A stretch of DNA of 64,000 nt from positions 41,336 through 105,335 of the forward strand of contig CAYITQ010000001.1 in assembly GCA_964366335.1 (NCBI GenBank), given 5' to 3'. Below the pieces are notes generated by a model. That model had not been told where the DNA came from, ran no database searches, and was given only the letters and a program-made list of their open reading frames with translations. Origin of the DNA: an uncultured Gammaproteobacteria bacterium (GTDB lineage: Bacteria > Patescibacteriota > Microgenomatia > CAZETR01 > Amesbacteraceae). The translations under genes and the position numbers were made by a program. Each line of letters begins with the position of its first letter. Within the stretch, counting starts at the first letter, position 1. Positions 5,584 through 28,765 of the stretch are shown piece by piece.

Positions 5584-5617
5584 ATCAAAACAGATCAAAA
5601 GGGCGTGGCCTTTTGAG
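5584..5617 (+). repeat. intergenic repeat family, copy C (core only). Hairpin with bidirectional terminator character.
   Basis: ATCAAAACAGATCAAAAGGGCGTGGCCTTTTGAG. AAAAGG/CCTTTT stem with a 6-nt loop, A-run on the left and T-run on the right. Sits between convergent genes. Confidence 0.5.
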
Positions 5618-5623
5618 CCGGGA

Positions 5624-6487: not shown

Positions 6488-8041
6488 ATGTTAAGGAAAC
6501 TTGGTTTTATTTTAGCACTTGGGTTGGTCTTGAGGATAGGACTTTTGACCAAAGTTCCGTCTGAGCTGTTTGGAGACGAAGTTGATGTGGGTTATCAAGC
6601 GTATTCTTTATTGAAAACCGGCCAAGACATTTACCGCCAAACTCTGCCTTTTTATGTTCATTCCCTAGCTGAATGGCGGGCACCCCTTCTCATGTATGCC
6701 ACCGTCCCGACAATTGCAGTAGCCGGTCTCAATGAATACGGCGCCCGCCTGCCAGAAGTGATTTTTGGGGTTTTAGGCATAGCCATAATATTTTTATTGA
6801 CGAGGAAATATTCTGTGGCTCTAGCTTTGGCAATTATGCCCTGGCATATTCACTATTCTAGGGCTGCTTTTGAAGTTGTACTCATGCTTGATCTAATCAT
6901 GCTGGGAACACTCTTGTTTCTCAAAAAACGTTTTTTGTTAGGTTTTATATTTTTTGCCCTGAGTCTTTATACATATAGTACTGCCATGTTGTTTGTCCCG
7001 CTGTGGATAGGCTATTTACTTATCAAAGAAAAAGCTTTTCCAATCTTGCAGGGACTGGTTTTTGGATTGTTGATAACACCACTTATTTATTTTATTTTTT
7101 TGGGTCCTGCCCGCGACCGGTTTGGGATTCTGAGCCTGACAAACAACCGCGAAATAATTGACAAAGTCTTTACACTCAGAAAAGAATCTTCTTCTCCTTA
7201 CATAAAATTCTTTGTAAATAAATATTTCATGGTCGGGGGAGAATGGTTTATGAATTATTTACGGCCCTTCTCGTCCGAATTTTTGTTTGTCAGGGGAGAC
7301 CCTGTTATGCGCCATAGCATTCAAGCGATCGGACAATTATTACCCCTGATGGCACCATTTTTGTTAATTGGTCTCTATGTCTTGGCCAAGAAAAGACAAT
7401 GGCTGTGGCTTGTCTGGTTGGCTCTTGCTCCCATCCCAGCATCTCTGACTTCTGATGGTGGCTATCATGCCACCCGCCTGTTTCTAATGGTCCCGCCACT
7501 TGCTGTCGCCATCGGCACCGGTCTCTCTCAAATTAAAAACCGCCTGTTACTTGTCTCCTGTCTCCTGTTACTATCAGCCCAACTGGTTTGGGCCGGCTAC
7601 TATTACCTCAATCATTATTCCAAACAATCCTGGCGTTGGTGGCATGTGGGTTACAAAAATATTCTTACCCAAATCCCCGCTCTCAGTGAAAATTATTCCA
7701 GGATATTTATAAACAACACTTATGAGCCGGCCCTGATGCGGTTTTTGTTTTGGACCAAATATGATCCTGCTAAGTTTCATAAGAACTTTACGGATGACAA
7801 ACCCTTAGACAATATTGTTCCCGGATATGACGGCTTTAGTCTGGATGGTAAATATTTCTTTGGCGCTTTCAACGGAAAAGAAAAACTTTTTCTTCCGGGA
7901 AGTCTATATATGATATCCCAGCGCGATGATGTGGGGGGAGATTGGGATTGGCGGGAATCACCTCCTGATAACATAAATCTAATAGGCGCCAGTAGCAATC
8001 TGTACGGTCAAGCGGTATTTTATTTGGTATCCAAAAAATGA
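6488..8041 (+). CDS. GT-C fold membrane glycosyltransferase, PMT/ArnT-like (GT39/GT83-type)
   Basis: About 12 TM helices. Loop-1 GDEVDVGYQAYSLLKTGQD 'DE' motif characteristic of the PMT/ArnT family. C-terminal soluble domain. Confidence 0.8.
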   Translation: MLRKLGFILALGLVLRIGLLTKVPSELFGDEVDVGYQAYSLLKTGQDIYRQTLPFYVHSLAEWRAPLLMYATVPTIAVAGLNEYGARLPEVIFGVLGIAIIFLLTRKYSVALALAIMPWHIHYSRAAFEVVLMLDLIMLGTLLFLKKRFLLGFIFFALSLYTYSTAMLFVPLWIGYLLIKEKAFPILQGLVFGLLITPLIYFIFLGPARDRFGILSLTNNREIIDKVFTLRKESSSPYIKFFVNKYFMVGGEWFMNYLRPFSSEFLFVRGDPVMRHSIQAIGQLLPLMAPFLLIGLYVLAKKRQWLWLVWLALAPIPASLTSDGGYHATRLFLMVPPLAVAIGTGLSQIKNRLLLVSCLLLLSAQLVWAGYYYLNHYSKQSWRWWHVGYKNILTQIPALSENYSRIFINNTYEPALMRFLFWTKYDPAKFHKNFTDDKPLDNIVPGYDGFSLDGKYFFGAFNGKEKLFLPGSLYMISQRDDVGGDWDWRESPPDNINLIGASSNLYGQAVFYLVSKK

Positions 8042-9258
8042 TTCGTAAATTACTTATATTTTCGGTAGTGATTATATTATTTGTCTGGCGGATTTTTCTT
8101 TCGGTCAACGCCAAGCATGGCGACATGTACAATAATATTAGCTGGGGAAGGGTAGCCTACAAACAGGAAGGTCTGGCCGGATATTATGAATTACCCAAAG
8201 AGGTCTGGTCTCACAGCCGGCCCAACCAGCCACCTGGTAGCATTTGGCTTCATCTTGCATCAGAAAATATTTATTACTCAACTGATAAACTGATAAACTG
8301 GCTAAACGGTAAACTACCGGTGTTTCCCTCAACGCTGGTTTGGTTTTGGCAGGATCATGGTGAGGTTATCTCGATCAAAATATTTTCAATATTAGCTGAC
8401 TTTGCGATAGCCCTTTTATTGTATAAAGCCGGCGGAAAAGGATTGGCTTTGATTTACCTGGTTAGTCCACCCATGTGGTACAACTCAAGCTACTGGGGCC
8501 AGACGGATCCGATTGTAGCGGCCTTAGCACTCTGGTCAATATACTTTCTGATCAAGGGAAAACTAGCCAGATCCGGCATACTTCTCGGACTTTCTTTGAT
8601 TACCAAGGCTTCGTGGGCGCCACTAACACTCTTCTATTTAATTTATTTTTGTCAAAATTTTCCCAGAAAAGTCTATAATTTGGTATTTATACCAGTAACG
8701 GCTATTTTGACTGCTTGGCCGTTTCACCCACAAACAGATCTCGTTTTTTGGCTGTACGATTTGTTTGTGACCAGAATACTGCCGGGAGAAACTGCTTTAG
8801 CTACCGTGGGTGCTTTTAATCTACATCACATAATCTGGGGTCAGATGGTCAACCATTGGTTTTCGACTATTTTAGCCATGATTATCTTAATTCCCTTAAT
8901 TATATATATGGCCATTAATTTGTTTCGGAAATCCGACCCCTTGAGACTTATTTATTGGCTGGCTCTCTTATTTTGGGCTTTCTTTTTGTTTAATACCAAA
9001 ATGCACGAACGCTACCTTTATCCCATTTTTCCGTTATTATCTTTTTTATTGGTTTTGAAACCGACTATAAAATTATTGATAATATACGTGCTAATCTCGC
9101 TGGTATTTTTGTTTAATATGTACTACATGTGGTATGCGCCCAATATCCCATGGTTGATGTCGCTGTATACACCCGAAGTTCTAGATTTCGTGAGTTTGGT
9201 TAATATTATTTTGTTTATCGCCTTTTTTAAGCTAAAATCAAGTTATGTTCAAGACTAA
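8038..9258 (+). CDS. polytopic membrane protein, probable GT-C-like glycosyltransferase
   Basis: 406 aa, many TM helices. HGDMYNNISWG loop near the N-terminus. Translationally coupled (ATGA) to the upstream PMT-like gene. Confidence 0.45.
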   Translation: MIRKLLIFSVVIILFVWRIFLSVNAKHGDMYNNISWGRVAYKQEGLAGYYELPKEVWSHSRPNQPPGSIWLHLASENIYYSTDKLINWLNGKLPVFPSTLVWFWQDHGEVISIKIFSILADFAIALLLYKAGGKGLALIYLVSPPMWYNSSYWGQTDPIVAALALWSIYFLIKGKLARSGILLGLSLITKASWAPLTLFYLIYFCQNFPRKVYNLVFIPVTAILTAWPFHPQTDLVFWLYDLFVTRILPGETALATVGAFNLHHIIWGQMVNHWFSTILAMIILIPLIIYMAINLFRKSDPLRLIYWLALLFWAFFLFNTKMHERYLYPIFPLLSFLLVLKPTIKLLIIYVLISLVFLFNMYYMWYAPNIPWLMSLYTPEVLDFVSLVNIILFIAFFKLKSSYVQD

Positions 9259-10828
9259 CTGGATAGTGGTAGGATTTATGGTCTTGGGATTTGTGCTTCG
9301 AACAGTTTGGCTTGCTAAATATCCGGCTGGTTTCACCCCGGACGAGGCTGCCTTTGGCTACAATGCCTATTCAATCTTGCAAACAGGTAAGGATGAGTGG
9401 GGAACTCCTTGGTGGCAATTGTTTTCCTCAAATATGCGCTCTTTTGGCGATTACAAGCTTCCCCTCTATACTTTCTTGGCCATTCCTAGTATAAAACTGT
9501 TTGGTTTAAATGAATTTGCCACCAGACTTCCAAATGCGATTATTGGGACATTGGCCATAGGGGCGATATATTTATTGACAAAGAGATTGTCCGCTGCCGT
9601 AATTCTGACACTCTCGCCCTGGGCAATTAGTATGTCCCGGGGGGCATTTGAAGCCAATCTCGCCACCTTGTTTTTGCCTCTGGGAATATATTTATTTTTG
9701 AGAAACAAATATTGGCTCAGCGCAATTATTTTTGCTTTGAGCTTTTATTCATATCATTCAGCAAGACTCGTGACACCAATAATCATTCTCATTCTGGTTT
9801 TGTATAAAAAAGTGAATAAAGAAGTATTACTACCAAGTTTACTTTTGGGTATTTTGTTAATTCCGGGATTATTCTCGATGGTGTCTCGAGGTAGTGCCCG
9901 GACGGCCGATGTCAGTATCATCAGTCCGACTGGTGGTTGGAGTGCAGTAGCCGATCGGAGATTTGAAGCCATTGTTGTTGGACTTCCGGATTCTGTCAGC
10001 AGATTCTTTTCCAACAAACCAATTTATGTAGTATCTGCTTTTGTCAAAAATTATTTGTCATATTGGTCACCACAATTCTGGTTTACTAGTGGGGCTGGCG
10101 AAGCTACTTATGGCATGATTACCGGCCGCGGGACATTTTATTATGTTGAAATCATATTCTTGGCTGGATTTTTAATATTATTTATCCGAAACCCCAATAA
10201 AGAATATTTGTTTATCCTGTTACTGGCAGCTATCAGCTTTGTTCCATCAGCTTTATCCAAAGGTCCTGGATATGCTGCCAACCGTGCCGTCATCGCCCTG
10301 CCATTTTTAATTATGATGCTCTCTCTGGGATCAGAATTTATATTAAAGAAAAAATCCTTAATTATTCTAACTTCTATCTTCTACCTTCTATCTTCCGTAT
10401 ATTTTATAGAGGACTACCTCTACCATGCACCCAAAAATAGTGCTAGGTCAATGAATTATGGCTGGACGGATTTGATGCCGAGGCTAATGCCAATAGCCAG
10501 TAGATTTGAAGACGTCAGATTTAGCAGATCACTTTCCGAGCCACATATATTTCTGGCTTTTTATACCAAGGCCGATCCAAAAGTTTATCAGCAGTATTCT
10601 TCGGGGTGGCTGGAATTTGAAAAGAAGGGCCTGAAATTTCTGGATCAATATGATGGTTATTATTTGGAAAAATTCCGCTTTGGGGATTTGAAGTATGGAG
10701 AACAGGTAACTAAACCAACCTTATATATAGGTAGACCGGATGAATTTCCGGACGATACCGGTTACTATATCAAAACGTTTTATCCGGACGGAACGCCAGA
10801 CATGATGGTAGCAGAAAAACAACCATGA
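9245..10828 (+). CDS. GT-C fold membrane glycosyltransferase, PMT/ArnT-like
   Basis: FTPDEAAFGYNAYSILQTGKDEWG DE motif. Multi-TM core plus C-terminal domain. Paralog of 6488, 12351, 14518 and 16020. Confidence 0.8.
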   Translation: MFKTNWIVVGFMVLGFVLRTVWLAKYPAGFTPDEAAFGYNAYSILQTGKDEWGTPWWQLFSSNMRSFGDYKLPLYTFLAIPSIKLFGLNEFATRLPNAIIGTLAIGAIYLLTKRLSAAVILTLSPWAISMSRGAFEANLATLFLPLGIYLFLRNKYWLSAIIFALSFYSYHSARLVTPIIILILVLYKKVNKEVLLPSLLLGILLIPGLFSMVSRGSARTADVSIISPTGGWSAVADRRFEAIVVGLPDSVSRFFSNKPIYVVSAFVKNYLSYWSPQFWFTSGAGEATYGMITGRGTFYYVEIIFLAGFLILFIRNPNKEYLFILLLAAISFVPSALSKGPGYAANRAVIALPFLIMMLSLGSEFILKKKSLIILTSIFYLLSSVYFIEDYLYHAPKNSARSMNYGWTDLMPRLMPIASRFEDVRFSRSLSEPHIFLAFYTKADPKVYQQYSSGWLEFEKKGLKFLDQYDGYYLEKFRFGDLKYGEQVTKPTLYIGRPDEFPDDTGYYIKTFYPDGTPDMMVAEKQP

Positions 10829-12372
10829 ATAAATTTCTATTAGTTTTAGTCCTGCTTTTGATTCCTGCTTTTGGCTTGATGCTTAGACCTGGAGTTTATA
10901 CCATGCATGATTTTCATGTCTTCCGCCAGCAACAATTTGAAAAATGTTTGCAGATAACCAAAAACTTTCCGTGCCGATGGTCCGGCGATGCCGGATTAGG
11001 TTATGGAGAACCAGTCTTTAATTTTTATGGTCAATTCCCATATTGGATTGGAGAAGTATTCAGAATATCAGGATTGTCAATTTTGGATTCTGTCAAAGCC
11101 AATTTTATATTGACATTAATTGCATCGGCGGTGGCGATGTACTTTCTTGCCCGGAAATTTTGGTCAAATTCAGGAGCCTTAGTCTCTGCGGTATTCTATG
11201 CCTATGCACCTTATCGGGCTGTCGATATTTGGGTGCGGGGAGCACTCAATGAATCTCTGGCTTTTATCTTTTTTCCTTTGATACTTTTATTTATCAAAGA
11301 ATTTATATCTACAAACAAGAATAAATATTTATTTTGGCTAATATTATCACTGGCAGGACTGACACTGACACATAATTTGTCGCTTTTGGTTTTTGCTCCA
11401 TTTGCAATTATATGGAGTATATTTTGGTGGTGGAAGAGCAATAGATCTATTCATTTAATTTATGATTTGACTAGCGCAGGATTAGCAAGCGTTCTGTTAT
11501 CAGCCTTTTATTTATTGCCTGTCATATTTGAAAGTAGTTTAGTAACTCTAAATCAGACAACTTCCGGTTATTATGATTTTCATTTGCATTACGCGACTCT
11601 GCGACAATTATTTCTTTCCACTTTTTGGGGATTTGGCGGATCTACCTGGGGTCCCAATGATACCATGAGTTTTGCGGTCGGACATTTACATTGGATATTG
11701 GCAATAATATTAGTCGTGTTCGTGTTGATAAAAAAAAGAAACAAAGAAATATTATTTTTTATCTCTCTCGGTCTCTTTGCTATCTTTCTTACTCACGGTA
11801 AATCAGACTTTATCTGGAATCTGGTTAAACCCATGGCTTATATCCAGTTTCCCTGGCGGTTTTTGACTATGTCCACCTTATTTTTATCGCTGGCGATGGG
11901 AGCCGTTACAAAATTGATTCCAAAACCGATATGGATTGTTTTATTGGTGCTGGGAATAACATTTTATGCTGGGAATTTCCACTCGGATATCTGGAGAGAT
12001 ATTACAGACAGTCAGCAATTCAGTGGCCAATTATGGGATGAGCAGAGAAGCTCGGCCCTGTCAGACTTCTGGCCAAAATCGGCCAAGCTTCCAAATAATT
12101 TCGCTCCCAAATCACCTGAAATAATTCTGGAGACTGACAGCTATCAAAAAATCCGCTATCCGATTGTTTATTTTCCGGGTTGGACGGCACGAAGCAATAA
12201 ACAAAAATTATTTATTTATCCAAGTGGGGAATTAGGTTTGATTACTGTGAGGGCTCCGGTAAATTCAAATATAAAATTATCTTTTGAAGATTCGCCGGTC
12301 AGAAAAATCGGAAACATTGTCAGTCTGATTACCTTATTTGGATTAATGATTTGGATGTGGAAAAAATCTTAA
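10825..12372 (+). CDS. polytopic membrane protein (possible YfhO/GT-C-like)
   Basis: 515 aa. N-terminal TMHDFHVFRQ loop. About 12 TM helices. C-terminal soluble domain ending in a TM anchor. Confidence 0.45.
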   Translation: MNKFLLVLVLLLIPAFGLMLRPGVYTMHDFHVFRQQQFEKCLQITKNFPCRWSGDAGLGYGEPVFNFYGQFPYWIGEVFRISGLSILDSVKANFILTLIASAVAMYFLARKFWSNSGALVSAVFYAYAPYRAVDIWVRGALNESLAFIFFPLILLFIKEFISTNKNKYLFWLILSLAGLTLTHNLSLLVFAPFAIIWSIFWWWKSNRSIHLIYDLTSAGLASVLLSAFYLLPVIFESSLVTLNQTTSGYYDFHLHYATLRQLFLSTFWGFGGSTWGPNDTMSFAVGHLHWILAIILVVFVLIKKRNKEILFFISLGLFAIFLTHGKSDFIWNLVKPMAYIQFPWRFLTMSTLFLSLAMGAVTKLIPKPIWIVLLVLGITFYAGNFHSDIWRDITDSQQFSGQLWDEQRSSALSDFWPKSAKLPNNFAPKSPEIILETDSYQKIRYPIVYFPGWTARSNKQKLFIYPSGELGLITVRAPVNSNIKLSFEDSPVRKIGNIVSLITLFGLMIWMWKKS

Positions 12373-13841
12373 TAATAATTATTCTTGTGACCGGCATCGT
12401 TTGGAGATTGCCGTATTTTGCACCCTCTAGTTTCAATTGGGATGAAGTTTCTCTCGGATATAATTCTTATTCAATGTTGAAGTCTGGAGCGGATGAATGG
12501 GGTATAAAAATGCCAACAATATTTCGAGCTTATGGTGATTACAAGCTTCCGGTATATGTCTACATGACCACACTCTGGCCGCAATTCCCCCGCACTACAT
12601 CTATCATTGCAGGCGTACTGACAATGCTGATTTCCTATTTATTGGTCCGAAAAATATTTAATAAAGAAACTGCGCTTGTTACTTTGGCACTTGTCACTCT
12701 GTCACCCTGGACAGTCATGCTCTCTCGTTTGGCTCTCGAGGCAAACTTAGCCGTTTTATTTATTTCCTTGGGCATGCTCTGCTTGGTCTCCAAAAAACAC
12801 CTCTGGTCAATAATCTTTTTTGGCATCTCGGTTTGGACTTACAACAGTGCGCGAGTATTTACTCCTTTATTTTTAGCTTGTTATTTAATCATAAACAAAA
12901 ATTATAAAAAGTTTACTTCTATGAACTATATACTATTAATTATTTTCTTTTTGCCGATGATATATCAATTATTAAACTCCACAGGTCAAGCACGATACAG
13001 TAAATTGTCACTTATAGACGACGGAGCTATAGGCAAAATAAATAAATTACAAACAACTCAATGGGGAGGACGCATGGTTTACAACAAAGCCACTTATTTT
13101 GCAGCCGCTTTTGCCAAAAATTATGTATCATATTTATCACCCAGTTTTTTGTTTATCAAAGGTGGCGATCACTATCAATTCAGCGTCCAAAATTATGGTC
13201 TTTTGTATCTAATATGTCTGCCTTTTTATTATATTGGATTAACAAAAGTTTTTAATAATAAATTACTTTTATTGTGGCTCTTAATAGCTCCAATCGCAGG
13301 AAGTATTACCCGTGATAGTCCTCACACCCTTCGAGCCATCACAATGCTGCCATTGCCAATGATACTTACCGCTCTTGGTGTAGTATCTATATTAAAAAAA
13401 TATTATTTAGTAATATTGCCAATTATTATATTATCTTCGATAAACTATCAACTAGCTACTAACTCCTATCTCCTAAACTACTCATGGTCTTGGCAATATG
13501 GCTATAAAGAAGTAGTTCAATTAATCAAACAAGACTACGATAAATACGATCAGATTATTTTTACCAAAAAATATGGTGAACCGCATGAATTTGTAGCCTT
13601 TTATTGGCCCTGGGATCCGGCTGATTTTGCCAAAAGTAAATCCTGGGACTATCATGCCAATTGGTATTGGGTCAACGAACTGGATAAAATTAAATTTGTA
13701 AATGATTGGGAAATGAAATCATATGTATATAAACCCAAGACACTAATTATCGCCAGTCCGGAAAATATTCCCGCGGGATCCGAAATCAAGCGAATTAATT
13801 TCCTAGACGGCAAACCCGCTTTTATAATTAAAGAATTATGA
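12351..13841 (+). CDS. GT-C fold membrane glycosyltransferase, PMT/ArnT-like
   Basis: FNWDEVSLGYNSYSMLKSGADEWG DE motif. Start is TTG at 12351 (alternative GTG at 12357). Overlaps the upstream gene. Confidence 0.75.
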   Translation: MDVEKILIIIILVTGIVWRLPYFAPSSFNWDEVSLGYNSYSMLKSGADEWGIKMPTIFRAYGDYKLPVYVYMTTLWPQFPRTTSIIAGVLTMLISYLLVRKIFNKETALVTLALVTLSPWTVMLSRLALEANLAVLFISLGMLCLVSKKHLWSIIFFGISVWTYNSARVFTPLFLACYLIINKNYKKFTSMNYILLIIFFLPMIYQLLNSTGQARYSKLSLIDDGAIGKINKLQTTQWGGRMVYNKATYFAAAFAKNYVSYLSPSFLFIKGGDHYQFSVQNYGLLYLICLPFYYIGLTKVFNNKLLLLWLLIAPIAGSITRDSPHTLRAITMLPLPMILTALGVVSILKKYYLVILPIIILSSINYQLATNSYLLNYSWSWQYGYKEVVQLIKQDYDKYDQIIFTKKYGEPHEFVAFYWPWDPADFAKSKSWDYHANWYWVNELDKIKFVNDWEMKSYVYKPKTLIIASPENIPAGSEIKRINFLDGKPAFIIKEL

Positions 13842-14443
13842 TAGTATTTATTGATGAGTCTGGGATTCATAAGCAAATAGGTCATTCGAGTGCTTCGGTA
13901 GTTTACGTTTGGACTCAGGATTTGGATAAATTTGAAAAAGGAATTGAGAGTTTAAATCAAAAGTTGAAAATAAATTATTTTCATTGGACTGAAAGTAGTT
14001 GGGAATTAAAAGAAAAATTTTTAGTCGGTGTCAGAAAATTAGATTTTCTATTTAAAGTTATCGTTTTTGATAACCCCATTAAATATCAGCAAATAATCGA
14101 GGTGGTCTTTAAGCATTTATTGGTGGAAAATGTGGATAAAGTATTCATTGACGGCAAAAAACCCGAATGGTATGAACGGAAACTAAAAAAAGTTTTAAGG
14201 GATATGGGAAACTCGGTTAAAAAACTGAAGACGATAAGAAATGAGTCGGCACATCCAGGAATCCAATTGGCAGATGCAATTGCTGGTTTATATAGGTACC
14301 AAGCCGATAATCCAAATTCTAAAATTGCGTCGGAGTTAGTGAAGAAATTAAATAAAAATGAAGTAATGTCAAGTAGCTTTAATGCCGATAATTATTTTAC
14401 CAAGAAAAACCCCGACAAAAGCCGGGGTCAGCGTCCCGGATAG
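13838..14443 (+). CDS. DUF3800-like protein (predicted RNase-H-like fold, soluble)
   Basis: N-terminal MIVFIDESGI and C-terminal HPGIQLADAIAGLY motifs match the DUF3800 pattern (YIDESG ... QLADxxAG). No TM segments. ATGA-coupled to the upstream PMT gene. Confidence 0.5.
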   Translation: MIVFIDESGIHKQIGHSSASVVYVWTQDLDKFEKGIESLNQKLKINYFHWTESSWELKEKFLVGVRKLDFLFKVIVFDNPIKYQQIIEVVFKHLLVENVDKVFIDGKKPEWYERKLKKVLRDMGNSVKKLKTIRNESAHPGIQLADAIAGLYRYQADNPNSKIASELVKKLNKNEVMSSSFNADNYFTKKNPDKSRGQRPG

Positions 14444-14517
14444 TTCACCATTGGTGTACTTTTCCACACGGGAATTTGTCACCGGTAGCTAGTTATGAGA
14501 TTATTATACGATAACTT

Positions 14518-16023
14518 ATGAAAATGTCAAGATTAATGATACTAATTTTTATTGTTTCTCTTGGTCTTACACTTAGACTGTTTTACTTAGACTCGCGTCC
14601 GGTGGGTTTTACCTGGGATGAAGCGGCCTTGGGATACAACGCCTATTCATTACTAAAGACGGGAAAGGATGAATATGGGAAAATTTTGCCGGTGGTATTT
14701 AAATCCTTTGGCGATTACAAGCCCGGATTATATATATATCTTACTGTCCCGGCCATAAAAATATTTGGTCTGTCAGAATTCGCCACCCGATTACCATCAG
14801 CGATCTTTGGAACGTTATTAATTGTCGTTGTGTATTTATTGGTTTCGAAATTACTTAGCGCTCAGCACCTAGCCCTTAGCACGGCATTTCTTCTTGCGAT
14901 TAATCCCTGGTCCATTCACTTCTCCCGTGGTGCCTGGGAAGCCAACATAGCGCTATTTCTGACGACATTAGCTACATTATTGTTTATAAAAAAGCGCTAT
15001 ATATATTCAAGTTTATTTTTTGGATTAACGCTATTTACCTATCAGGGGGCCAAGATGTTTACCCCGCTCTTAGTTTTATCACTTTTGATAATTTATAAAC
15101 CAAATATTAAAAAACTGTTTTGGCCAGGAGTATTAGGATTACTTCTGTTATTACCAATCCTTTGGAATCTTGATTCACAATCCGGAAGGTTGAAGGTCTT
15201 TAGTATCTTTAATTATCAGGGAAATTTAGTCAGGGGAATTACCCAGCGTTACCTAAATCACCTTTCTCCGAAATATTTGTTTTTTACGGGAGACTGGTCA
15301 AATTTGCGTCAGAGTATTCCCTATTATGGCTACTTCCACCTGCCCGAAATTATCACCATCGCAATCGGTCTGATTGTTCTTCTAAGAACTAATAACCAAG
15401 TAACCAAGCTACTAATAACATGGCTATTAATTGTTATTTTACCTTCCGCCCTATCCCGTGATATTGTCTCTGGTGTCCGCTCTCTGCCTATGGTAATACC
15501 GTTAGTAATTATGTCCGGAATCGGACTTGCAAAATTATTTTATTATCACCGCCTTTTATACATTTATACATTTATACTTTTATCCTTATTTATTTTATTC
15601 TTGGATCTCTATTTTATCCATGCTCCCAATTTCGTAGCCCGTGACATGATGTATGGTTATAAACAAGCTCTTCAAATAATCAAACCGTACTTAGATAGGT
15701 ATGATAGGGTAATATTTACAGACAAACTTGGTCAGCCGTATATATATACTTTATTCTATTACACAATAGACCCAGGCAGTTATCAAAAACAAGCAAATTT
15801 AATATTAGATTCCCAGGGGGATGTAGGAAAAGTGGAAAAGTGGGGTAAGTTTTTGTATCAGCCACCCGATTGGCGATATCAGCGGGGTGACAACTCAACC
15901 ATATTTGTGGGTGATAATTACGAATTGCCCGATCAGGATATGAATCCGGTAAATTTAATTAAATTGGGTGAAGTTTACTATCCAAATGGCAAACACGCGC
16001 TTAGAATAGTGGCTCTAAAATGA
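14518..16023 (+). CDS. GT-C fold membrane glycosyltransferase, PMT/ArnT-like
   Basis: FTWDEAALGYNAYSLLKTGKDEYG DE motif. Contains a heptamer-repeat tract at 14854-14882. Confidence 0.8.
   Translation: MKMSRLMILIFIVSLGLTLRLFYLDSRPVGFTWDEAALGYNAYSLLKTGKDEYGKILPVVFKSFGDYKPGLYIYLTVPAIKIFGLSEFATRLPSAIFGTLLIVVVYLLVSKLLSAQHLALSTAFLLAINPWSIHFSRGAWEANIALFLTTLATLLFIKKRYIYSSLFFGLTLFTYQGAKMFTPLLVLSLLIIYKPNIKKLFWPGVLGLLLLLPILWNLDSQSGRLKVFSIFNYQGNLVRGITQRYLNHLSPKYLFFTGDWSNLRQSIPYYGYFHLPEIITIAIGLIVLLRTNNQVTKLLITWLLIVILPSALSRDIVSGVRSLPMVIPLVIMSGIGLAKLFYYHRLLYIYTFILLSLFILFLDLYFIHAPNFVARDMMYGYKQALQIIKPYLDRYDRVIFTDKLGQPYIYTLFYYTIDPGSYQKQANLILDSQGDVGKVEKWGKFLYQPPDWRYQRGDNSTIFVGDNYELPDQDMNPVNLIKLGEVYYPNGKHALRIVALK
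14854..14882 (+). repeat. degenerate heptanucleotide tandem tract (CTTAGCG CTCAGCA CCTAGCC CTTAGCA C) within the coding sequence
   Basis: 7-nt periodicity read directly from the sequence. Shares the core AGCACTTAGCCCTTAGCAC with tracts at 16351, 16513 and 17003. Confidence 0.55.
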
Positions 16024-17630
16024 AAAAATATATTCCATTATTTTTGATTTTAATTTTGGCTACAGTATTACGTGTCTGGAATATCTCTGGTAGCCCTTCG
16101 GGGCTCAATGCCGACGAAGCAGCTCTGGGCTACAACGCTTATTCTCTGATGTTGACTGGAAAAGATGAGCATGGCCATCCTTGGCCCGTTAATCTGGAAT
16201 CTTTTGGCGATTTCAAACCGGCTGGTTATGCCTATATATTAATTCCCTTTGTCAAAATCTTTGGTCTTACCGAATTCGCCGTCCGCCTCCCCTCGGTAAT
16301 ATTTGGGGTATTGGGAGTATTGGGAATTTATTTGTTAACCTACGAACTACTTAGCACTTGGCCCATAGCCCTTAGCACTGCTCTTATGCTCACAATTTCC
16401 CCTTGGCATTTACACTTTTCTAGAGGAGCTTGGGAAGTAAATGTCTCAACAACGTTTATAGTTTATGGTTTATGGTTCATAGTAAAATGGCTCAAAAGTC
16501 CAAAGTTTATATACTTAGCCCTTAGCACCTGGCACCTAGCACTGGCAATGTATTTCTATCAATCTTCCCGCGTCATCGTTCCACTATTGGGTCTAGGAAT
16601 ATTTATCATGTATTTCAAGAATTTTAAAACAAACCTCAAGCAAACAATAGTTTCTGGATTATTGTTGTTGGTATTATTATTACCTTTAATAATTTCGGTT
16701 ATAAGATCTGACGCTACATCCAGATTGAGCGGCGTAGGCTTATTAGCCGATTCGGGACCTACTGAGCGAGCCAAGGAACTTCGTATTCAGCATGGGGATC
16801 TCAAATCTATTCCTTCCAAGCTTTTGCACAATAGACCCGTACAATATGGTCTAAGATTTATTCAAAACTATCTCGATCATTTCGATGGTAATTTTCTGTT
16901 TGTAAACGGCGACGTCATCGAGCGTAGTAAGGTCCCGGAAATGGGTCTCTTTTATCTGACCGATTTTATTTTTCTAGCTCTTGGAATCGTTTATCTGCTT
17001 CGTACTCAGCACTTAGCCCCTAGCACTAATATAATCTGGCTCTGGCTTCTAATCGCACCAGTAGCTTCCGCCATGACATTCCAGACTCCTCACTCTCTCC
17101 GCGCCTTCAATATGGTAATTCCTATGACAATAATAATCTCTGTGGGAGTGTATCAAGTAATAAAATTTAAAAAACTATTTATCATTTTAATTGTTCCGTT
17201 ATATGTATATCAGCTTTCAGACTATTTGTATAAATATTACGTCCGTTATCCAAAAGAATATCCAGCCGCTTGGGAATATGGTTTTAAAGAACTGGTGGCC
17301 TATACAGAAAGTGTCAAAGACAAATATCCCAAAATCTGGGTGACAGACAAATATGACCAGCCCTATATATTGTTTCTATTTTATTCAAAATATGACCCAC
17401 GAAAGTTTCAGGGCAACCACACCCTTACATTTCGCGACAAATTCAATTTTTCTACTGTACGCGACTTCGATAAATATCATTTTGAATCCGCTCCTTGGGA
17501 CAAAGTCCGCAATCAGCATTCGGCATTGATAGTAGCTGCGCCAGAGGATATTCCAGATCTGGGAGTGGATGTGATAAAAACCATCAATTTCCCAAATGGC
17601 CTCCCGGCGTTTAAAATAGTATCAAATTGA
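16020..17630 (+). CDS. GT-C fold membrane glycosyltransferase, PMT/ArnT-like
   Basis: LNADEAALGYNAYSLMLTGKDEHG DE motif. ATGA-coupled. Contains three heptamer-repeat tracts. Confidence 0.8.
   Translation: MKKYIPLFLILILATVLRVWNISGSPSGLNADEAALGYNAYSLMLTGKDEHGHPWPVNLESFGDFKPAGYAYILIPFVKIFGLTEFAVRLPSVIFGVLGVLGIYLLTYELLSTWPIALSTALMLTISPWHLHFSRGAWEVNVSTTFIVYGLWFIVKWLKSPKFIYLALSTWHLALAMYFYQSSRVIVPLLGLGIFIMYFKNFKTNLKQTIVSGLLLLVLLLPLIISVIRSDATSRLSGVGLLADSGPTERAKELRIQHGDLKSIPSKLLHNRPVQYGLRFIQNYLDHFDGNFLFVNGDVIERSKVPEMGLFYLTDFIFLALGIVYLLRTQHLAPSTNIIWLWLLIAPVASAMTFQTPHSLRAFNMVIPMTIIISVGVYQVIKFKKLFIILIVPLYVYQLSDYLYKYYVRYPKEYPAAWEYGFKELVAYTESVKDKYPKIWVTDKYDQPYILFLFYSKYDPRKFQGNHTLTFRDKFNFSTVRDFDKYHFESAPWDKVRNQHSALIVAAPEDIPDLGVDVIKTINFPNGLPAFKIVSN
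16351..16379 (+). repeat. heptanucleotide tandem tract (ACTTAGC ACTTGGC CCATAGC CCTTAGC ACT)
   Basis: Same repeat family as 14854-14882, at the homologous position of the paralog. Confidence 0.55.
16513..16546 (+). repeat. heptanucleotide tandem tract (ACTTAGC CCTTAGC ACCTGGC ACCTAGC ACTGGC)
   Basis: Same family. Non-homologous position within the same gene. Confidence 0.55.
17003..17027 (+). repeat. heptanucleotide tandem tract (ACTCAGC ACTTAGC CCCTAGC ACT)
   Basis: Same family. Third tract in gene 16020-17630. Confidence 0.5.
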
Positions 17631-17631
17631 T

Positions 17632-18429: not shown

Positions 18430-19408
18430 AGTAGGCTTTATCACAAAATCCATGACCGATGACAATGCCCAGAGAGGAGTCGGTTTCTATGCCAAGCGTC
18501 TGCTCGAAAGGCTAAAGGCTCAAGGCTCAAGGCTCAATATTGAGATTTTAGAAGACAAATATAGTGAAGTGGATATAGTTCACTATCCATATTTTGATTT
18601 GTTCTACCACACTCTCCCCTTATTCCCAAAGACAAAAACAGTAGTCACGGTCCACGACGTCATACCTCTGGAATTTCCAAACGTATATAAGCAAGGTCTA
18701 AAAGCAAAGCTTAATTTGTACTTGCAAGGCCTGGCCTTGCAAACTGTTGGCACTGTTATTACCGATTCATTTTATTCACTCAAAAATATTCATAAATATT
18801 TAGGTGTCCCTCACGAAAAATTGAAATTAGTTTATCTGGCTGCGGATGAAATATTTAAACCAAAAAAAGTTACTAAAAAATATAATTTACCCAAAGATTT
18901 TGTATTGTATGTGGGGGATGTTAATTACAACAAAAATATTCCGGGACTGATCCAAGCCGCGAAGCTTGCAAATTTACCATTAGTCATGGTTGGTAAACAA
19001 GCAGCCGAAGTTGAATCAATGGATTTGAATCACCCAGAACTTGTCCATCTTTCTATGAACTATGAACTAATAACTAATTACCCGATACGGTTGGGATTTG
19101 TCCCAGATGAGGATTTGGTAGATATTTATAATTTGGCAAGCGTATATTGCCAGGCATCATTCTCAGAAGGCTTTGGTCTCAATCCTTTGGAGGCATTGGC
19201 CTGTGGGACACCTGTGGCATCAAGTAATCGTGGCTCTCTACCAGAAATATTGGGTGAAAATGCTGTCTATTTTGATCCCGATGACACTTCACAAATAGCT
19301 AGTGCCATATTGAAGGCCAAAAATAGTAAAATAGACTTCAAATCAAATTTGACTTGGGAAAAAACAGCAAAAGAAACGTTAATGATCTACAAATCACTAT
19401 GTCCATAA
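18422..19408 (+). CDS. family 4 glycosyltransferase (GT4, GT-B fold)
   Basis: C-terminal EGFGLNPLEALACGTPVASSNRGSLPEI (E-x7-E GT4 signature). ATG at 18422 overlaps the upstream stop. Confidence 0.8.
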   Translation: MIKVGFITKSMTDDNAQRGVGFYAKRLLERLKAQGSRLNIEILEDKYSEVDIVHYPYFDLFYHTLPLFPKTKTVVTVHDVIPLEFPNVYKQGLKAKLNLYLQGLALQTVGTVITDSFYSLKNIHKYLGVPHEKLKLVYLAADEIFKPKKVTKKYNLPKDFVLYVGDVNYNKNIPGLIQAAKLANLPLVMVGKQAAEVESMDLNHPELVHLSMNYELITNYPIRLGFVPDEDLVDIYNLASVYCQASFSEGFGLNPLEALACGTPVASSNRGSLPEILGENAVYFDPDDTSQIASAILKAKNSKIDFKSNLTWEKTAKETLMIYKSLCP

Positions 19409-20502
19409 AAACAATTTTTAAATATATTCTCACTTGGCAGATGGCCATAATTATTGTTTCCCGCTCAGCGGGATTATTTTTGCCTCTGCAGGAAACCTAT
19501 ATTGGTGGCGCCACCCAAGCCTATGTCGAAAACCCCCTGCTCTATTCCAGAGCCAATTTTGATGGTAATCATTATCTGACTATTGCCAGACGGGGTTATG
19601 GCTATGCCCAGCAAGCCTTCTTTCCGCTTTATCCAAACTTAATCCGTTATTTTTCCAAATACATGCTTCCGGTTACCTCGGGTGTGGCCATTAGCATTGT
19701 TAGCTTTTTTATCGCCATTATATTTTTGGTCAAACTGGTTAAACTAGACGATTCTGATCCAAATATTGCCAAGTGGACAATAATCAGTTTATTAACCTTT
19801 CCCACAAGCTTCTTTTTGGGCAGTGTTTATACCGAAGGCTTGTTTCTGATGCTGGTGGTTTTGAGTTTTTATTGTGCTAGGACTGGCCGCTGGTGGCTAG
19901 CCGGTATCTTTGGGGCATTCGCCAGCTATACCCGCTTTGTAGGTATATTTTTATTACCAGCTTTATTGTTTGAATGGTTTGAGACTTCAAAAAACAAGAA
20001 AAATTTAATACCAATATTATTAATCCCAATAGGTTTATTAATCTATATGCAGTTTTTGGACAAAACTACTGGAGATCCTTTTGCCTTCATTCATGTCCAA
20101 AAACTATTTGGCCAAGGCAGAAGTGAGAAGTTTATCTTGCTCTACCAAGTATTTTGGAGATATATCAAGATGGTTTTTACAGTAGATCTCAACAATCCTA
20201 TTTATCCCACGGTGGTTCTGGAATTTGTGACTGGTATTGCCTTCCTGTGGGCTTCAATAGCAGTCGCAATTAAGCAACGCCGTTCATATGCTGTCTTTGC
20301 CGTCCTTTCCTACCTTATACCCACTCTCACAGGCAATCTGGTGTCTCTGCCCCGCTATATCCTGACTGCATTTCCTTTTTTTATAGGTTATGGTAGATTT
20401 TTAACACAATATAAACATCTTCGTCTGATTATATTACCTGTCAGTGGACTACTGTTAGTTATTTATTTAGGGATGTTTATACGAGGTTATTGGGTTGCAT
20501 GA
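19399..20502 (+). CDS. polytopic membrane protein, PIG-V/GT76-like mannosyltransferase family (putative)
   Basis: ANFDGNHYLTIARRGY...FFPLYP loop-1 segment resembling PIG-V-type GT-C enzymes. About 8-10 TM helices. Confidence 0.45.
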   Translation: MSIKTIFKYILTWQMAIIIVSRSAGLFLPLQETYIGGATQAYVENPLLYSRANFDGNHYLTIARRGYGYAQQAFFPLYPNLIRYFSKYMLPVTSGVAISIVSFFIAIIFLVKLVKLDDSDPNIAKWTIISLLTFPTSFFLGSVYTEGLFLMLVVLSFYCARTGRWWLAGIFGAFASYTRFVGIFLLPALLFEWFETSKNKKNLIPILLIPIGLLIYMQFLDKTTGDPFAFIHVQKLFGQGRSEKFILLYQVFWRYIKMVFTVDLNNPIYPTVVLEFVTGIAFLWASIAVAIKQRRSYAVFAVLSYLIPTLTGNLVSLPRYILTAFPFFIGYGRFLTQYKHLRLIILPVSGLLLVIYLGMFIRGYWVA

Positions 20503-21779
20503 AAGAAAAGATAAAATCTGTTTGGACAAATCCAGCTCTACGTGGGACGTCAATATTTATGGTGGGTAACGTTGTGGTCAGTGGTTTGGCTTTTACCTAT
20601 CATTTCTTGTTAGCCAGATTATTGGGCCCACATGAATATGGTATTTTGGCCGCCTTATTTGGTTTGTTGTACTTTGTTCAAGTTCCTATAAATACTGTAG
20701 ATTTTTTGATTACAAAATTAATATCTAGTTTTGAAGCCGAAAAAATTGTTAGCCACACCCGAGGGTTGATAAGTTATTTAGTACAAAAGGTAGGTTTAGT
20801 ATCTTTACTGGTATTTCCAGTTTTATTATTACTATCTAAGTTTGTGCAAGATTTTCTCAAACTTCCGGAAATAGGTCCAGTGATTGCCATTTGGTTATTT
20901 ATCTATCTACTATTAATTATTACTGTCTTACGGGCGGTGCTTAAAGCATGGCTACGGTTTACTGACCTAGTCTTGAATCAAATCATTGAAATGGTTGCAA
21001 GACTTGGACTCTCAGTGGTTTTTATTTATTTTGTTTCAGCTTGGTATGGTTGGGGTTTAGTAGGAGTTATTCTGGCTTCGTTGCTAGTTTTATTTATAAG
21101 TTTGTTTCAGGTGCGCGAAATATTATCAGTACCAACAGATAAATTTGAACATCACAAATGGCCGATTAAATCTCTGGGGATCGGGGGATTAGTATTGTCA
21201 CTTGCTTATACTCTCATGTATTCAATTGACATTTTATTAGTCAAACATTTTTTTAGTGATTATTGGACCGGTATTTATGCAGTACTGGTTACAGCCGGTA
21301 AAGTGGTCTATTTTGCTCAATCGCCCTTGAGTACAGCAATGATCCCGGTGGTGGCTAGAAAATCCCAGCATCCGGCTCACGCCAGAAATGACCTATGGTT
21401 TTTACTTGGAATTTCAGGATTAATCGGGACGTCGATCGTGGGCTTGTATTTTGTTGCCTCGCAAGCATTAGTTATATCGGTGTTTTCGAGTAAGTTTATC
21501 GCGGCCGCCCCTTTGATGGCTTGGATGGGCCTGGCAATTTTTGGTTATGCCCTAGCCAATACCTGCGCCGGATTTTTATTGGCCTTAAATAAGACAAAGG
21601 CTGCCTGGATTTCATTGCTTGGATTGTTTGCCGAAGCAACCGGAATCTATTTATTTCATGCCAGTTTGACTCAGGTTGTATTATCTTTGGGAATTGTTTT
21701 TGGTATACTTGCCCTAGTTTTAATAATTTATAGCTTCTATGTCACGCGTCCAGCTATCAATAGTAGTCCCGGCTTATAA
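20499..21779 (+). CDS. Wzx-like oligosaccharide/polysaccharide flippase (MOP superfamily)
   Basis: 429 aa, 12-14 TM helices. N-terminal LRGTSIFMVGNVVVSGLAFTYHFLLARLLGPHEYG typical of Wzx/polysaccharide biosynthesis proteins. ATGA-coupled. Confidence 0.7.
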   Translation: MKEKIKSVWTNPALRGTSIFMVGNVVVSGLAFTYHFLLARLLGPHEYGILAALFGLLYFVQVPINTVDFLITKLISSFEAEKIVSHTRGLISYLVQKVGLVSLLVFPVLLLLSKFVQDFLKLPEIGPVIAIWLFIYLLLIITVLRAVLKAWLRFTDLVLNQIIEMVARLGLSVVFIYFVSAWYGWGLVGVILASLLVLFISLFQVREILSVPTDKFEHHKWPIKSLGIGGLVLSLAYTLMYSIDILLVKHFFSDYWTGIYAVLVTAGKVVYFAQSPLSTAMIPVVARKSQHPAHARNDLWFLLGISGLIGTSIVGLYFVASQALVISVFSSKFIAAAPLMAWMGLAIFGYALANTCAGFLLALNKTKAAWISLLGLFAEATGIYLFHASLTQVVLSLGIVFGILALVLIIYSFYVTRPAINSSPGL

Positions 21780-24226: not shown

Positions 24227-24230
24227 CTTC

Positions 24231-26293: not shown

Positions 26294-27243
26294 TTTGGCC
26301 AAAGATTTCAATAGTTATTCCAACCCTTAACGAAGAAGAGAATATCAGAAAATGTCTAGAATCAATTTTCTGTCAGGATTACCCGCGAGATAAACTAGAA
26401 GTTTTAGTAGTCGACGATGATTCAATTGATCAAACAATAAAAATTGTCAAAAAATATCCGATTCGAATTTTGAGAAATGGACATAAACACGGGGAGATTG
26501 GCAAGATGATCGGATTGAAAGCTGCTAAAGGCGAATATTTTATATATTTAGACGCTGACATTGAATTGCGAGGTAAAAATTGGTTAAAGAAAATAGTTAA
26601 ACCTTTGGTTGAAAATCCTAATATAATAGGTAGCTTTACAAAATACTATAGTAAAGTAAATACTTCACCTATAGAGAGATATTTAAACTTTGATCCATTA
26701 CAAAGAGATCAAATCTATCAATTTTTCTCTCCTTCGATTGAAGATACGATAAAATCAAAAAAAGGAGAATATTATATTTGTGAATATAAAATAGGTAACA
26801 TACCTCCAGCTGGTTTGTGTTTATTTAGAAGAAAAGAGTTGTTAGATATAGTTGAGAATTTTGAAATGTTTTTAGAACTGGATTTCTTGGTTTTATTAGT
26901 CAAAAATGGTTTTAATAAATTCGTTTTTGTACCAGAAGCAGGGCTTTATCATCATCATGTAACATCACTGTTTGAATTACTGCGCAAGCGTAAGTACAAC
27001 TTGACAAAAGTATATTTCTTACATGTCAAAAACAAACTTTATACATGGATTGACTGGAAGAATCCTCTTCATTTATTAAAGTTGGGGCTTTGGATAATTT
27101 ATGCAAATTTATTTTTTCCATCACTATTTACGGGTATATATAAATCAATCAAATATCGGGATTGGGTGGGTTTATATGAACCTGTCGTCAACCTTTTTGT
27201 AACAGACTTACTCATTATCTCATTTCTGATACATGATAAATAA
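26290..27243 (+). CDS. family 2 glycosyltransferase
   Basis: ISIVIPTLNEEENIRKCLESIFCQDYP...LVVDDDSIDQT. ATG at 26290 (MIWPKIS) overlaps the upstream stop. Confidence 0.8.
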   Translation: MIWPKISIVIPTLNEEENIRKCLESIFCQDYPRDKLEVLVVDDDSIDQTIKIVKKYPIRILRNGHKHGEIGKMIGLKAAKGEYFIYLDADIELRGKNWLKKIVKPLVENPNIIGSFTKYYSKVNTSPIERYLNFDPLQRDQIYQFFSPSIEDTIKSKKGEYYICEYKIGNIPPAGLCLFRRKELLDIVENFEMFLELDFLVLLVKNGFNKFVFVPEAGLYHHHVTSLFELLRKRKYNLTKVYFLHVKNKLYTWIDWKNPLHLLKLGLWIIYANLFFPSLFTGIYKSIKYRDWVGLYEPVVNLFVTDLLIISFLIHDK

Positions 27244-28765
27244 ACCAGTTATAATCCTGATTTTTTTAGTAGCGTTTTTCAAAACCACCCTTTTCTCATT
27301 TTATGGTTTCGGATTGGTGGACGAAGGAGAGAGCTTGCATAACGCCCAGAGGATATTGGAAGGGGATATACCGTATCGTGATTTTTTTGCCATATTTCCG
27401 CCTATGGACAATTATTATTTCGCTTTGATATTCAAACTATTTGGGGAATCAGTCCTTATACCCAGAATAATTTCCAGTATCATCTTTTCATTTACCCCTG
27501 TATTAATTTTTCTTATCTGTAAGAGATTCGCTCCGACAAAATTATCCACCATTCCAGCTATCTTAATTACATTTTCAGATGTTAATATTGAGCGTCTATA
27601 TATCTTTACTCCGATATTTTTAGGTGTATATCTGTATCTTCAGGCAGTTAATAGAAAAAAGAAGTGGCTTTTTGGCTGGTCAGGTTTTATGCTTGGATTG
27701 TCTAGTCTTATTCGATTGGATATTCCCGGAACATTCGGTGTGTCTGCGGTAATTGTACTGGCCGCTTATCTATTTCTAACCTCACATAAAAACTGGATAA
27801 AAAAATGGTTTATTTACTCGCTGTATATGGGAGTAGGTTTCGGATTACCCATTATGTTAATGATTGCATGGATGATTAATTTGGGTATTGTTGATACTTT
27901 TATAAATATGGCTTTGACTAGTGCTGTCACCATTACCCAGCTTCACCACTTACCCTTCCCATCTGTATTGAATTTAATTCCTTCCCGATTTGATTTAGCC
28001 GCCTTGGGTAGCACATTTACAGCCTATTACGGATATGCCATTCTGGCTACATATTTGGTTAGCACGCTCCTGGTTCTAAAAAAGATAACCGTCATAATCA
28101 AGAACAACATAGAAATTCCGGTCCTTATTCTTGCGGGAATACTCGCTCTGCCTTACATTTTTGGCCGGAGCGAGATGGGTCATCTGGTAAAAGGGGGAAC
28201 GCCATTTCTTATTTTGGGTGTATTTTTACTCAGAAATATTCAAAATTTAAAAATAAAAATAATTATATATGGATTACTTGCTGGTTTATTTTTTGCCACA
28301 ATATTTCAATCAATCTGGTGGATTCGTTTTAATGACCAAAAAATAAAAATAGCTAATCAAACCCTAAATATAAATTCTAAATACCCTACGAATTCGACCA
28401 AAGTTTCAGCAGAAAGTTTGAAAAGGTCAGTACTTTTTCTCCAAGAGAATTCTACTCTAACTGATCCGATATTAGCCTTACCATACATGGCAGGTCTCTA
28501 TTTTTTGGCTGATCGGACTAGTCCCACACAGTTTAATAATCTTTTGGCAGGGTTTATTACTACAGAAGAAGAACAACTAGAATTTGTTAGCAAAATCGAA
28601 GACAGCAACGTCAAAATCGTTATTTATGATCCTAACAATGGCCCCAAAATGAAGACGGCTAGAATGCAAGATTATAATCCACTGATTCACAAATACCTTA
28701 TAGAGAAATTTCAAATAGTTGAGCAAACTCCGGAAGGTTGGTTGTTCATGAAAAGAAAAATATGA
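27233..28765 (+). CDS. GT-C-like polytopic membrane protein with a DE-type loop motif
   Basis: 510 aa, many TM helices. N-terminal loop GLVDEGESLHNAQRILEG resembles the ArnT/PMT DE motif. Confidence 0.5.
   Translation: MINKPVIILIFLVAFFKTTLFSFYGFGLVDEGESLHNAQRILEGDIPYRDFFAIFPPMDNYYFALIFKLFGESVLIPRIISSIIFSFTPVLIFLICKRFAPTKLSTIPAILITFSDVNIERLYIFTPIFLGVYLYLQAVNRKKKWLFGWSGFMLGLSSLIRLDIPGTFGVSAVIVLAAYLFLTSHKNWIKKWFIYSLYMGVGFGLPIMLMIAWMINLGIVDTFINMALTSAVTITQLHHLPFPSVLNLIPSRFDLAALGSTFTAYYGYAILATYLVSTLLVLKKITVIIKNNIEIPVLILAGILALPYIFGRSEMGHLVKGGTPFLILGVFLLRNIQNLKIKIIIYGLLAGLFFATIFQSIWWIRFNDQKIKIANQTLNINSKYPTNSTKVSAESLKRSVLFLQENSTLTDPILALPYMAGLYFLADRTSPTQFNNLLAGFITTEEEQLEFVSKIEDSNVKIVIYDPNNGPKMKTARMQDYNPLIHKYLIEKFQIVEQTPEGWLFMKRKI

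Follow-up and report, generated by a model that had tools for sequence, protein, structure and literature searches.

Five anciently diverged GT-C glycosyltransferase paralogues in a conserved gene array of Microgenomates bacteria

We analysed a stretch of 64,000 nucleotides from an uncultured bacterium (contig CAYITQ010000001.1, positions 41,336 to 105,335; hereafter the window), in which five genes between positions 6,488 and 17,630 encode related polytopic membrane proteins. With a probability that we put at roughly 0.55, these proteins are anciently duplicated, catalytically intact membrane glycosyltransferases of the GT-C type, and are part of an operon for stepwise assembly of an envelope glycan that recurs in the best 80 of at least 597 genomes carrying a relative. 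We regard this as the best explanation of the homology, fold, residue conservation, synteny and positional orthology described below; the type of donor, the stepwise order and the acceptor are predicted. The five genes, named here (as are all others) by their first coordinate, are the following.

6488..8041, + strand: GT-C paralogue 1, the most divergent of the five; 517 amino acids, loop-1 sequence DEVDVGYQAYSLLKTGQD, 701 bits to the family hidden Markov model (HMM)
9245..10828, + strand: GT-C paralogue 2; 527 amino acids, loop-1 sequence DEAAFGYNAYSILQTGKD, 25.7 bits to Pfam PMT_2 against a cut-off of 26.1
12351..13841, + strand: GT-C paralogue 3; 496 amino acids from the TTG codon at 12351 (the gene caller places the start 6 nucleotides later on the assembly L001), PMT_2 35.4 bits
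14518..16023, + strand: GT-C paralogue 4; 501 amino acids, PMT_2 29.6 bits and PMT 26.3 bits
16020..17630, + strand: GT-C paralogue 5, the last of the array and the protein that was modelled; 536 amino acids, PMT_2 40.2 bits

An initial annotation had described five polytopic proteins of about 500-535 amino acids, in agreement with the lengths of the open reading frames (496-536 amino acids) and with the 8-11 hydrophobic segments that a crude hydropathy scan finds in each. The pairwise alignment that it proposed reveals mutual homologues over nearly their full length (blastp identity 29-33%, E values from 1e-40 to 1e-84), and all five score 700-780 bits on the family HMM. Similarity between the copies is essentially absent at the DNA level, being limited to a single stretch of 333 nucleotides (67% identical) shared by g14518 and g16020, and the window is reproduced collinearly, at 99.9% identity, by two independent assemblies (L001 and L002). 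Because so little DNA is shared and the independent assemblies agree, the five genes are not assembly duplicates, and near-identical copies are ruled out as an explanation of the array. As judged from these alignments, they are old paralogues, neither recent evolutionary duplications nor products of the assembler. The loop-1 motif by which the initial annotation had recognised the family fits none of the five when taken literally, because its register is off by one residue and because g6488 has GQDIY in place of G.DE, but a relaxed form, DE..(.)GY..Y....G.D, is present in exactly these five proteins and in no other large membrane protein of the window. Their C-terminal domains are also still alignable, with YG[YFW]K, EP/QP, F[YW] and DP elements in common.

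The loci compared are those of the best 80 of the at least 597 genomes in which a motif scan, made with one genome per species, found a relative, and all 80 are of Microgenomates type (Amesbacteria, Woesebacteria, Shapirobacteria, Daviesbacteria and Blackburnbacteria). The phylogeny that had been called for, calculated by neighbour joining from 351 members, resolves into five clades, and each of these contains exactly one window paralogue and corresponds to a single position in the array. The clade of g6488, which is its own, has 45 sequences; that of g9245 has 51, with 45 at the g9245 position; that of g12351 has 71 from 71 loci, with 70 in place; that of g14518 has 80 members at its position; and that of g16020 has 81 from 81 loci, with 80 in the last position. 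These position-bound clades imply that the duplications predate the divergence of Amesbacteria, Woesebacteria and Shapirobacteria. The order of the array has been kept since before the candidate phyla of the group split, and the array is a lineage-wide feature that is not peculiar to this genome. Members were counted with the family HMM in the 56 loci where 9 kb or more of DNA precedes the g16020 orthologue; at least four are found in 52 and at least five in 45, with a maximum of seven, and the number ranges from three to seven between lineages. The density of paralogues that the initial annotation had called exceptional is hence the norm in Microgenomates-type genomes, being exceptional only in comparison with typical bacteria. 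Beyond the g16020 orthologue, on its downstream side, 79 of the 80 loci have no strong family member; in L084 one of 310 bits follows immediately, and L009 has a weaker one (136 bits). Extra or reversed copies are seen in some loci.

At sixteen positions all five orthogroups have the same residue, conserved to at least 85%; D32, E33, D49, R89, R135, Y180, R235 and R361 are among these, and both D32 and E33 are invariant in the alignment of the array family (A2). Since the putative catalytic and phosphate-binding residues are retained in every one of the five orthogroups, there is no sign of a degenerate pseudo-enzyme among them, and five catalytically intact enzymes having D32/E33 as their putative catalytic centre are part of the best explanation. 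Identity between orthogroups peaks in loop 1 (0.58) and is lowest, at about 0.19-0.27, in residues 201-275 and 426-536, where identity within groups is 0.24-0.44 (0.34-0.44 outside residues 201-225); identity within orthogroups exceeds that between groups along the entire protein. The suggestion that the N-terminal parts are conserved while the C-terminal parts have diverged therefore holds in outline, although the C-terminal domains are still homologous. Residues 201-275 (with the 226-275 loop) and the C-terminal extracytoplasmic domain are likely to be specificity determinants, given this pattern, and the paralogue-variable regions would fit differing acceptor or linkage specificities.

An AlphaFold model of g16020, calculated from 41 sequences (pLDDT 90.1, pTM 0.90), has a helical membrane module (residues 1-415) followed by a small alpha/beta C-terminal domain (residues 420-536), and its D32-E33 pair opens the first loop helix (residues 31-46) after the first transmembrane (TM) helix. 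Foldseek agrees with a GT-C fold for this model. On the strength of the model and this agreement we regard the predicted GT-C fold of the five proteins as certain, and the proposal that these are GT-C membrane glycosyltransferases with an acidic Asp-Glu pair opening the first extracytoplasmic loop is borne out by fold and conservation alike. The C-terminal alpha/beta domain has no informative match. By fold, the g16020 model is as near to ALG12, AglB and STT3 as to ArnT or Pmt4, and AftA, AftB, AftD and Emb are also among its matches. Assignment to the PMT/ArnT family, as initially proposed, is accordingly a loose one. The PMT_2 model (PF13231, gathering score 26.1) is passed by three of the five (g16020, g12351 and g14518), with g9245 falling 0.4 bits short, but g6488 has no Pfam match, and the PMT model (PF02366, gathering score 22.7) is passed by g14518 alone (26.3), with 19.6 for g12351 and no match for the other three. 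No PMT_4TMC or MIR domain is matched in any of the five at E values up to 0.01. The Agl23 model (TIGR03663; 435 positions, cut-off 126.25 bits) is not reached either, the best scores being 54.4 (g14518) and 51.8 (g16020), and these sub-threshold matches are largely confined to the first third to half of the model. Searching PDB sequences with a profile of the five returned ArnT as the sole relevant match (E value 2.4e-4), which covers only 78 residues (68-145) in the K-P-containing TM2-3 region, and a single-sequence PDB search with g16020 returned nothing relevant. Most homologues have a precomputed PF13231 match and carry public or NCBI names such as "glycosyltransferase family 39 protein" or "ArnT-like". 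Membership of PMT (GT39) or ArnT (GT83) in particular is thus not certain. The family stands at about the same distance from several GT-C families, and a separate PMT_2-like subfamily is the description that suits it best. It is a large one, given that 5,759 clusters at 50% identity match at E values up to 1e-30.

Best-hit labelling of the related loci gives a recurrent gene order, namely 6488-8038-9245-10825-12351-14518-16020-17632(GT2)-18344(GT4)-19354(PIG-V-like)-20490(Wzx)-21739(GT2). In the window, the genes that interrupt and follow the array are these.

8038..9258, + strand: GT87-like polytopic protein, a different GT-C type; 406 amino acids, Pfam GT87 25.0 bits, exactly at the cut-off
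10825..12372, + strand: PTPS_related/DUF6541-type polytopic protein with an MHDF loop; 515 amino acids, PF10131 35.7 bits (cut-off 26.4)
13838..14443, + strand: DUF3800 protein within the array; 201 amino acids, Pfam DUF3800 35.1 bits
17632..18429, + strand: GT2 glycosyltransferase after the array; 265 amino acids, Pfam GT2 79.6 bits
18344..19408, + strand: GT4 glycosyltransferase (gene-caller start 18422)
19354..20502, + strand: PIG-V-like (Mannosyl_trans2) GT-C protein; PF04188 41.5 bits, downstream in most loci
20490..21779, + strand: Wzx-type flippase-like protein; Polysacc_synt 46.8 bits, conserved downstream

The five paralogues do form an array, as had been claimed, but not a contiguous tandem one, since the genes at 8038-9258, 10825-12372 and 13838-14443 are interleaved with them. 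Counterparts of g8038 are present at the same position in many related loci, and the position of g10825 is likewise kept in many. The DUF3800 gene, by contrast, has a counterpart (42% identity) only in L005 among the 80 related loci, implying a recent insertion in this subclade, and it is probably not part of the glycan machinery. The array is directly followed by the GT2 orthologous to g17632 in 73 of 78 loci. Start and stop codons overlap by four nucleotides at 8038, 10825, 13838 and 16020, and this translational coupling supports the proposed operon. A scan of positions 5000-24500 found 70 promoter-like and 25 terminator-like elements against chance expectations of 63.5 +/- 8.2 and 16.2 +/- 4.6, and because both counts are within chance they define no usable operon boundary. 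At the upstream edge, the start codon of g6488 abuts that of a divergent GT2 gene (5624-6487, - strand) with zero bases between, so that any promoters must sit within neighbouring coding sequence; the pair is also found in L005 and L006. A 585-amino-acid protein with an N-terminal signal or anchor (22469-24226), also conserved downstream of the array, has no Pfam, NCBIfam or PDB sequence match.

The window as a whole is a glycan island, containing about 13 GT2 and six GT4 genes, seven methyltransferase domains, a sugar epimerase/dehydratase, an AsnB-type amidotransferase, a hexapeptide acyltransferase and the Wzx-like flippase. Two genes may supply donors, as suggested by their sequence similarities. 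One of these, g30004, encodes a UbiA protein nearest to decaprenyl-phosphate phosphoribosyltransferase (DPPR synthase; 91.5 bits, cut-off 234), and the other is as follows.

55959..56654, - strand: candidate polyprenyl-phosphate hexose synthase of the GT2 type; 231 amino acids, NCBIfam AglJ 107.7 bits, PpgS 77 bits, dolichyl-phosphate-hexose transferase 56 bits

Under the explanation that we prefer, cytoplasmic GT2 and GT4 enzymes would make a lipid-linked glycan, which the Wzx-type protein would flip across the membrane. At the outer face each GT-C paralogue would add one defined sugar or linkage from a polyprenyl-phosphate-sugar donor, with the loop-1 Asp-Glu pair as predicted catalytic centre and the variable 226-275 loop and C-terminal domain picking the acceptor. 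The acceptor would be the flipped lipid-linked glycan or a wall-bound one, and the GT87-like, PTPS_related-type and PIG-V-like GT-C proteins would take part. Use of a lipid-phosphate donor is predicted from the conserved R89, R135, R235 and R361 together with the candidate polyprenyl-phosphate-sugar synthases, and the final product is most likely to be a cell-surface glycopolymer or the glycan of a surface glycoconjugate. A more ambitious form of this scheme, which we offer tentatively as a minority view, is that the five orthogroups and the three other types of GT-C protein constitute an obligatory, ordered outer-face assembly line, a bacterial counterpart of the ALG series, that builds one defined, branched surface glycan common to Microgenomates, possibly the one through which these ultra-small episymbionts attach to hosts or are recognised by them.

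Several observations weigh against stepwise envelope-glycan assembly. All of the donor-synthase assignments (g55959 and g30004) are under curated cut-offs, and Pfam recognises no initiating phosphoglycosyl transferase, Wzy/ligase or STT3-type protein in the window, leaving the pathway incomplete as seen. Some lineages are without the interleaved g8038 and g10825 genes, so that the line-up is not fixed, and no member of the family has been characterised biochemically. Moreover, the best PDB match of the GT2 protein g17632 is Listeria GmaR, a flagellin O-GlcNAc transferase (E value 3e-16), followed by the peptide S-glycosyltransferases ThuS and SunS, leaning towards a protein acceptor. This resemblance, together with the Asp-Glu loop and the matches to PMT and PMT_2, favours the idea, raised by the initial annotation, of a protein O-glycosylation battery, in which PMT-like paralogues transfer sugars from polyprenyl phosphate to serine or threonine residues of different sets of secreted, pilus or S-layer proteins. 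The PMT cut-off is passed by only one of the five, however, with neither PMT_4TMC nor MIR found, and the fold is equally near to ALG12, AglB and ArnT. No Ser/Thr/Pro-rich candidate acceptor stretch is present among the window proteins (the highest Ser+Thr+Pro fraction in any 40 residues is 0.40), and a context rich in Wzx, GT4, AftD-like and UbiA proteins is typical of polymer assembly. We therefore give a protein O-glycosylation role about one chance in four.

It is also conceivable, if rather improbable, that the paralogues are subunits of one or two hetero-oligomeric transferases, as in Pmt1-Pmt2 or EmbA-EmbB, with fewer chemical steps than genes. The fixed gene order and the overlapping stop and start codons would suit stoichiometric co-expression, and GT-C paralogue pairs are known to heterodimerise (PDB 6p25 and 7bvf are among the fold matches); all five orthogroups nevertheless retain the full putative catalytic and phosphate-binding set, with no degenerate scaffold among them, and the number of members varies from three to seven between lineages. 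Hardly any weight can be given to surface-glycan variation by interchangeable copies with fast turnover, like the serotype-converting Gtr-type GT-C proteins. Local flux is hinted at by the DUF3800 gene in the array, by the Bro-N and C39-like peptidase genes elsewhere in the island and by the extra or reversed copies, but strict positional orthology across distant lineages, with identity higher within than between orthogroups along the entire protein, already largely refutes this model. As for an assembly artefact or a recent duplication, we found nothing in favour of either, and the 29-33% protein identity, the near absence of DNA similarity and the two independent assemblies at 99.9% identity make both close to impossible. 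Stepwise assembly of an envelope glycan thus remains the explanation that we prefer.

Among known systems, ArnT (undecaprenyl-phosphate-L-Ara4N:lipid A transferase; GT83, PMT_2, PDB 5ezm/5f15) is of like size and also has a C-terminal extracytoplasmic domain, but it is only 10-12% identical to the array proteins and is a single gene rather than five paralogues. The array, furthermore, has neither the arn-operon context nor neighbours of lipopolysaccharide (LPS) type; no ArnA/B/D-type genes are present in the 64-kb window, and matches to the ArnC model are far under the cut-off. With PMT proteins (GT39; PDB 6p25, 9e61, 9i5k) the array shares the Asp-Glu pair in loop 1 and, in g14518, a weak Pfam PMT match, whereas MIR and PMT_4TMC are missing and the PMT model stays under its cut-off in four of the five. 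There are precedents for tandem GT-C paralogues that differ in acceptor site, embCAB being one. In mycobacteria, EmbC-EmbA-EmbB, AftA/B/C/D and the GT87 enzymes PimE/Mpt are GT-C paralogues, some of them in tandem, each of which extends an envelope polymer by a defined sugar from a polyprenyl-phosphate donor. The window likewise holds GT87-like and AftD-type genes and the UbiA gene nearest to DPPR synthase, but no DprE1/E2-type epimerase is seen in it, and its source is a roughly 1-Mb bacterium of the Candidate Phyla Radiation (CPR) without a mycolata-type wall. In the lumen of the endoplasmic reticulum, the GT-C paralogues ALG3, 9, 12, 6, 8 and 10 work one after another, in a set sequence, on a flipped lipid-linked glycan, with dolichyl-phosphate sugars as donors. 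The operon similarly has a Wzx-type flippase-like gene (MOP superfamily), but with 10% identity and no STT3-type protein recognised in the window this is a functional analogy and not a family assignment. Rhizobium RgtA and RgtB are ArnT-like galacturonic acid (GalA) transferases acting on the Kdo of LPS, providing a precedent for ArnT-like paralogues that put the same kind of sugar on different sites of one glycolipid (PMC4402001); their acceptors are those of Gram-negative LPS, however, and the paralogues are fewer.

Our search of the literature for GT-C, PMT, ArnT or glycosyltransferase arrays in CPR, Patescibacteria, Microgenomates and Woesebacteria found no description of this array, and the papers examined mention only "dolichol-phosphate mannosyltransferase" copies in Peregrinibacteria and Saccharibacteria. 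What appears to be new is the conserved array of five orthogroups; the automatic annotation of such proteins as GT39 or ArnT-like and the existence of tandem GT-C paralogues elsewhere were known already, and neither a new mechanism nor a new fold is implied. Conservation of the array marks its product as a core component of the envelope and provides a concrete, testable gene set for CPR surface composition, and a single biochemical assignment in the family would annotate thousands of proteins.

Three further GT-C genes, all named in the initial annotation, lie downstream in the window.

27233..28765, + strand: PMT_2-type GT-C protein; 510 amino acids, Asp-Glu loop GLVDEGES, PMT_2 26.1 bits (equal to the cut-off), preceded by the GT2 gene 26215
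32447..34114, + strand: Asp-Glu-loop GT-C relative from a small CPR-only family; 555 amino acids, FFQQDEWLG, 73 homologues
58118..59416, + strand: distant GT-C relative; 432 amino acids from an ATG inside the open reading frame 58043-59416, related over the N-terminal third only

The Asp-Glu loops ascribed to g27233 and g32447 were both found. Alignment of the g32447 family (A3) with the array family by hhalign has a probability of 96.7% (E value 3.5e-10) over 362 columns, with Asp-Glu placed on Asp-Glu, and the profile of the g32447 family has no match among PDB sequences. The proposal that g58118 is a sixth member with the same motif did not stand, as only LDEAA is common and the family HMM gives it 41 bits as compared with 700-780. 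It matches the Agl23 model under the cut-off (E value 2.6e-10) and aligns with the family (hhalign, 97.4%) over about 156 N-terminal columns, and is a distant relative from a different GT-C subfamily. When the other large membrane proteins were aligned singly with the family by hhalign, only g58043, the reading frame containing g58118, was convincing; g27233, g32447 and g10825 were weak, and g34095, g37198, g48540 and g49820 were uninformative. The giant proteins g34095 and g37198 (1038 and 1173 amino acids) are 41% identical, and 17 of 28 members of their family match GT-C_AftD (PF11847; best E value 2.2e-11), although the two window proteins themselves do not reach an E value of 0.01 and the family profile has no PDB sequence match. 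Altogether, 11 genes of GT-C type have at least threshold-level support (the five together with 8038, 10825, 19354, 27233, 32447 and 58118), with weaker candidates at 51 (GT87, 25.9 bits), 34095 and 37198 and unproven ones at 48540 and 49820. The last two (48540-49835, 431 amino acids; 49820-52618, 932 amino acids) are polytopic and have no Pfam, NCBIfam or PDB sequence match, the longer being weakly similar to the AftD-like pair.

Between 30004 and 40719 the genes run in the order UbiA, PHP phosphoesterase fused to an S-adenosylmethionine (SAM) methyltransferase, GT-C gene 32447 and the two AftD-like giants, possibly representing, from these similarities, a polyprenyl-phospho-pentose arm of mycobacterial style. 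Since no DprE1/E2-like epimerase is seen in the window, its donor might be ribofuranose rather than arabinofuranose. The seven SAM-methyltransferase domains (30894-32435, 43757-47822 and 52581-53324; three stand in a row on the - strand at 45409, 46103 and 47052) suggest that sugars of the product are methylated. The AsnB-type glutamine amidotransferase (54145-55914, - strand; Asn_synthase 319.6 bits) is full-length and may serve to amidate a sugar acid, not to produce asparagine. Bro-N domains are typical of phage and viral genes, and a Bro-N protein with a C39-like cysteine peptidase, located between glycosyltransferase genes at 60332-61754, may be a small mobile insert.

The G+C content of the window is about 37%, and nearly all of its coding is on the + strand, with frequent overlaps of stop and start codons. 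Its nearest named relatives are Candidatus Amesbacteria of the Microgenomates group within the CPR. Many third-party (TPA_asm) records of metagenome-assembled genomes with the operon (L010-L013, L019, L020 and many more) are titled "uncultured Gammaproteobacteria bacterium", almost certainly as a placeholder or through taxonomic mislabelling. The uncultured Microgenomates have genomes of close to 1 Mb (901,682 bp in the complete relative CP055307.1), yet at least 64 kb of this genome is given over to glycan assembly, with the five-paralogue array as its core. Exact copies of g16020 and g32447 are found on contigs from Hainich groundwater well H43 (ENA ERZ1292629 and others), which derive from the 0.1 and 0.2 μm filter fractions.

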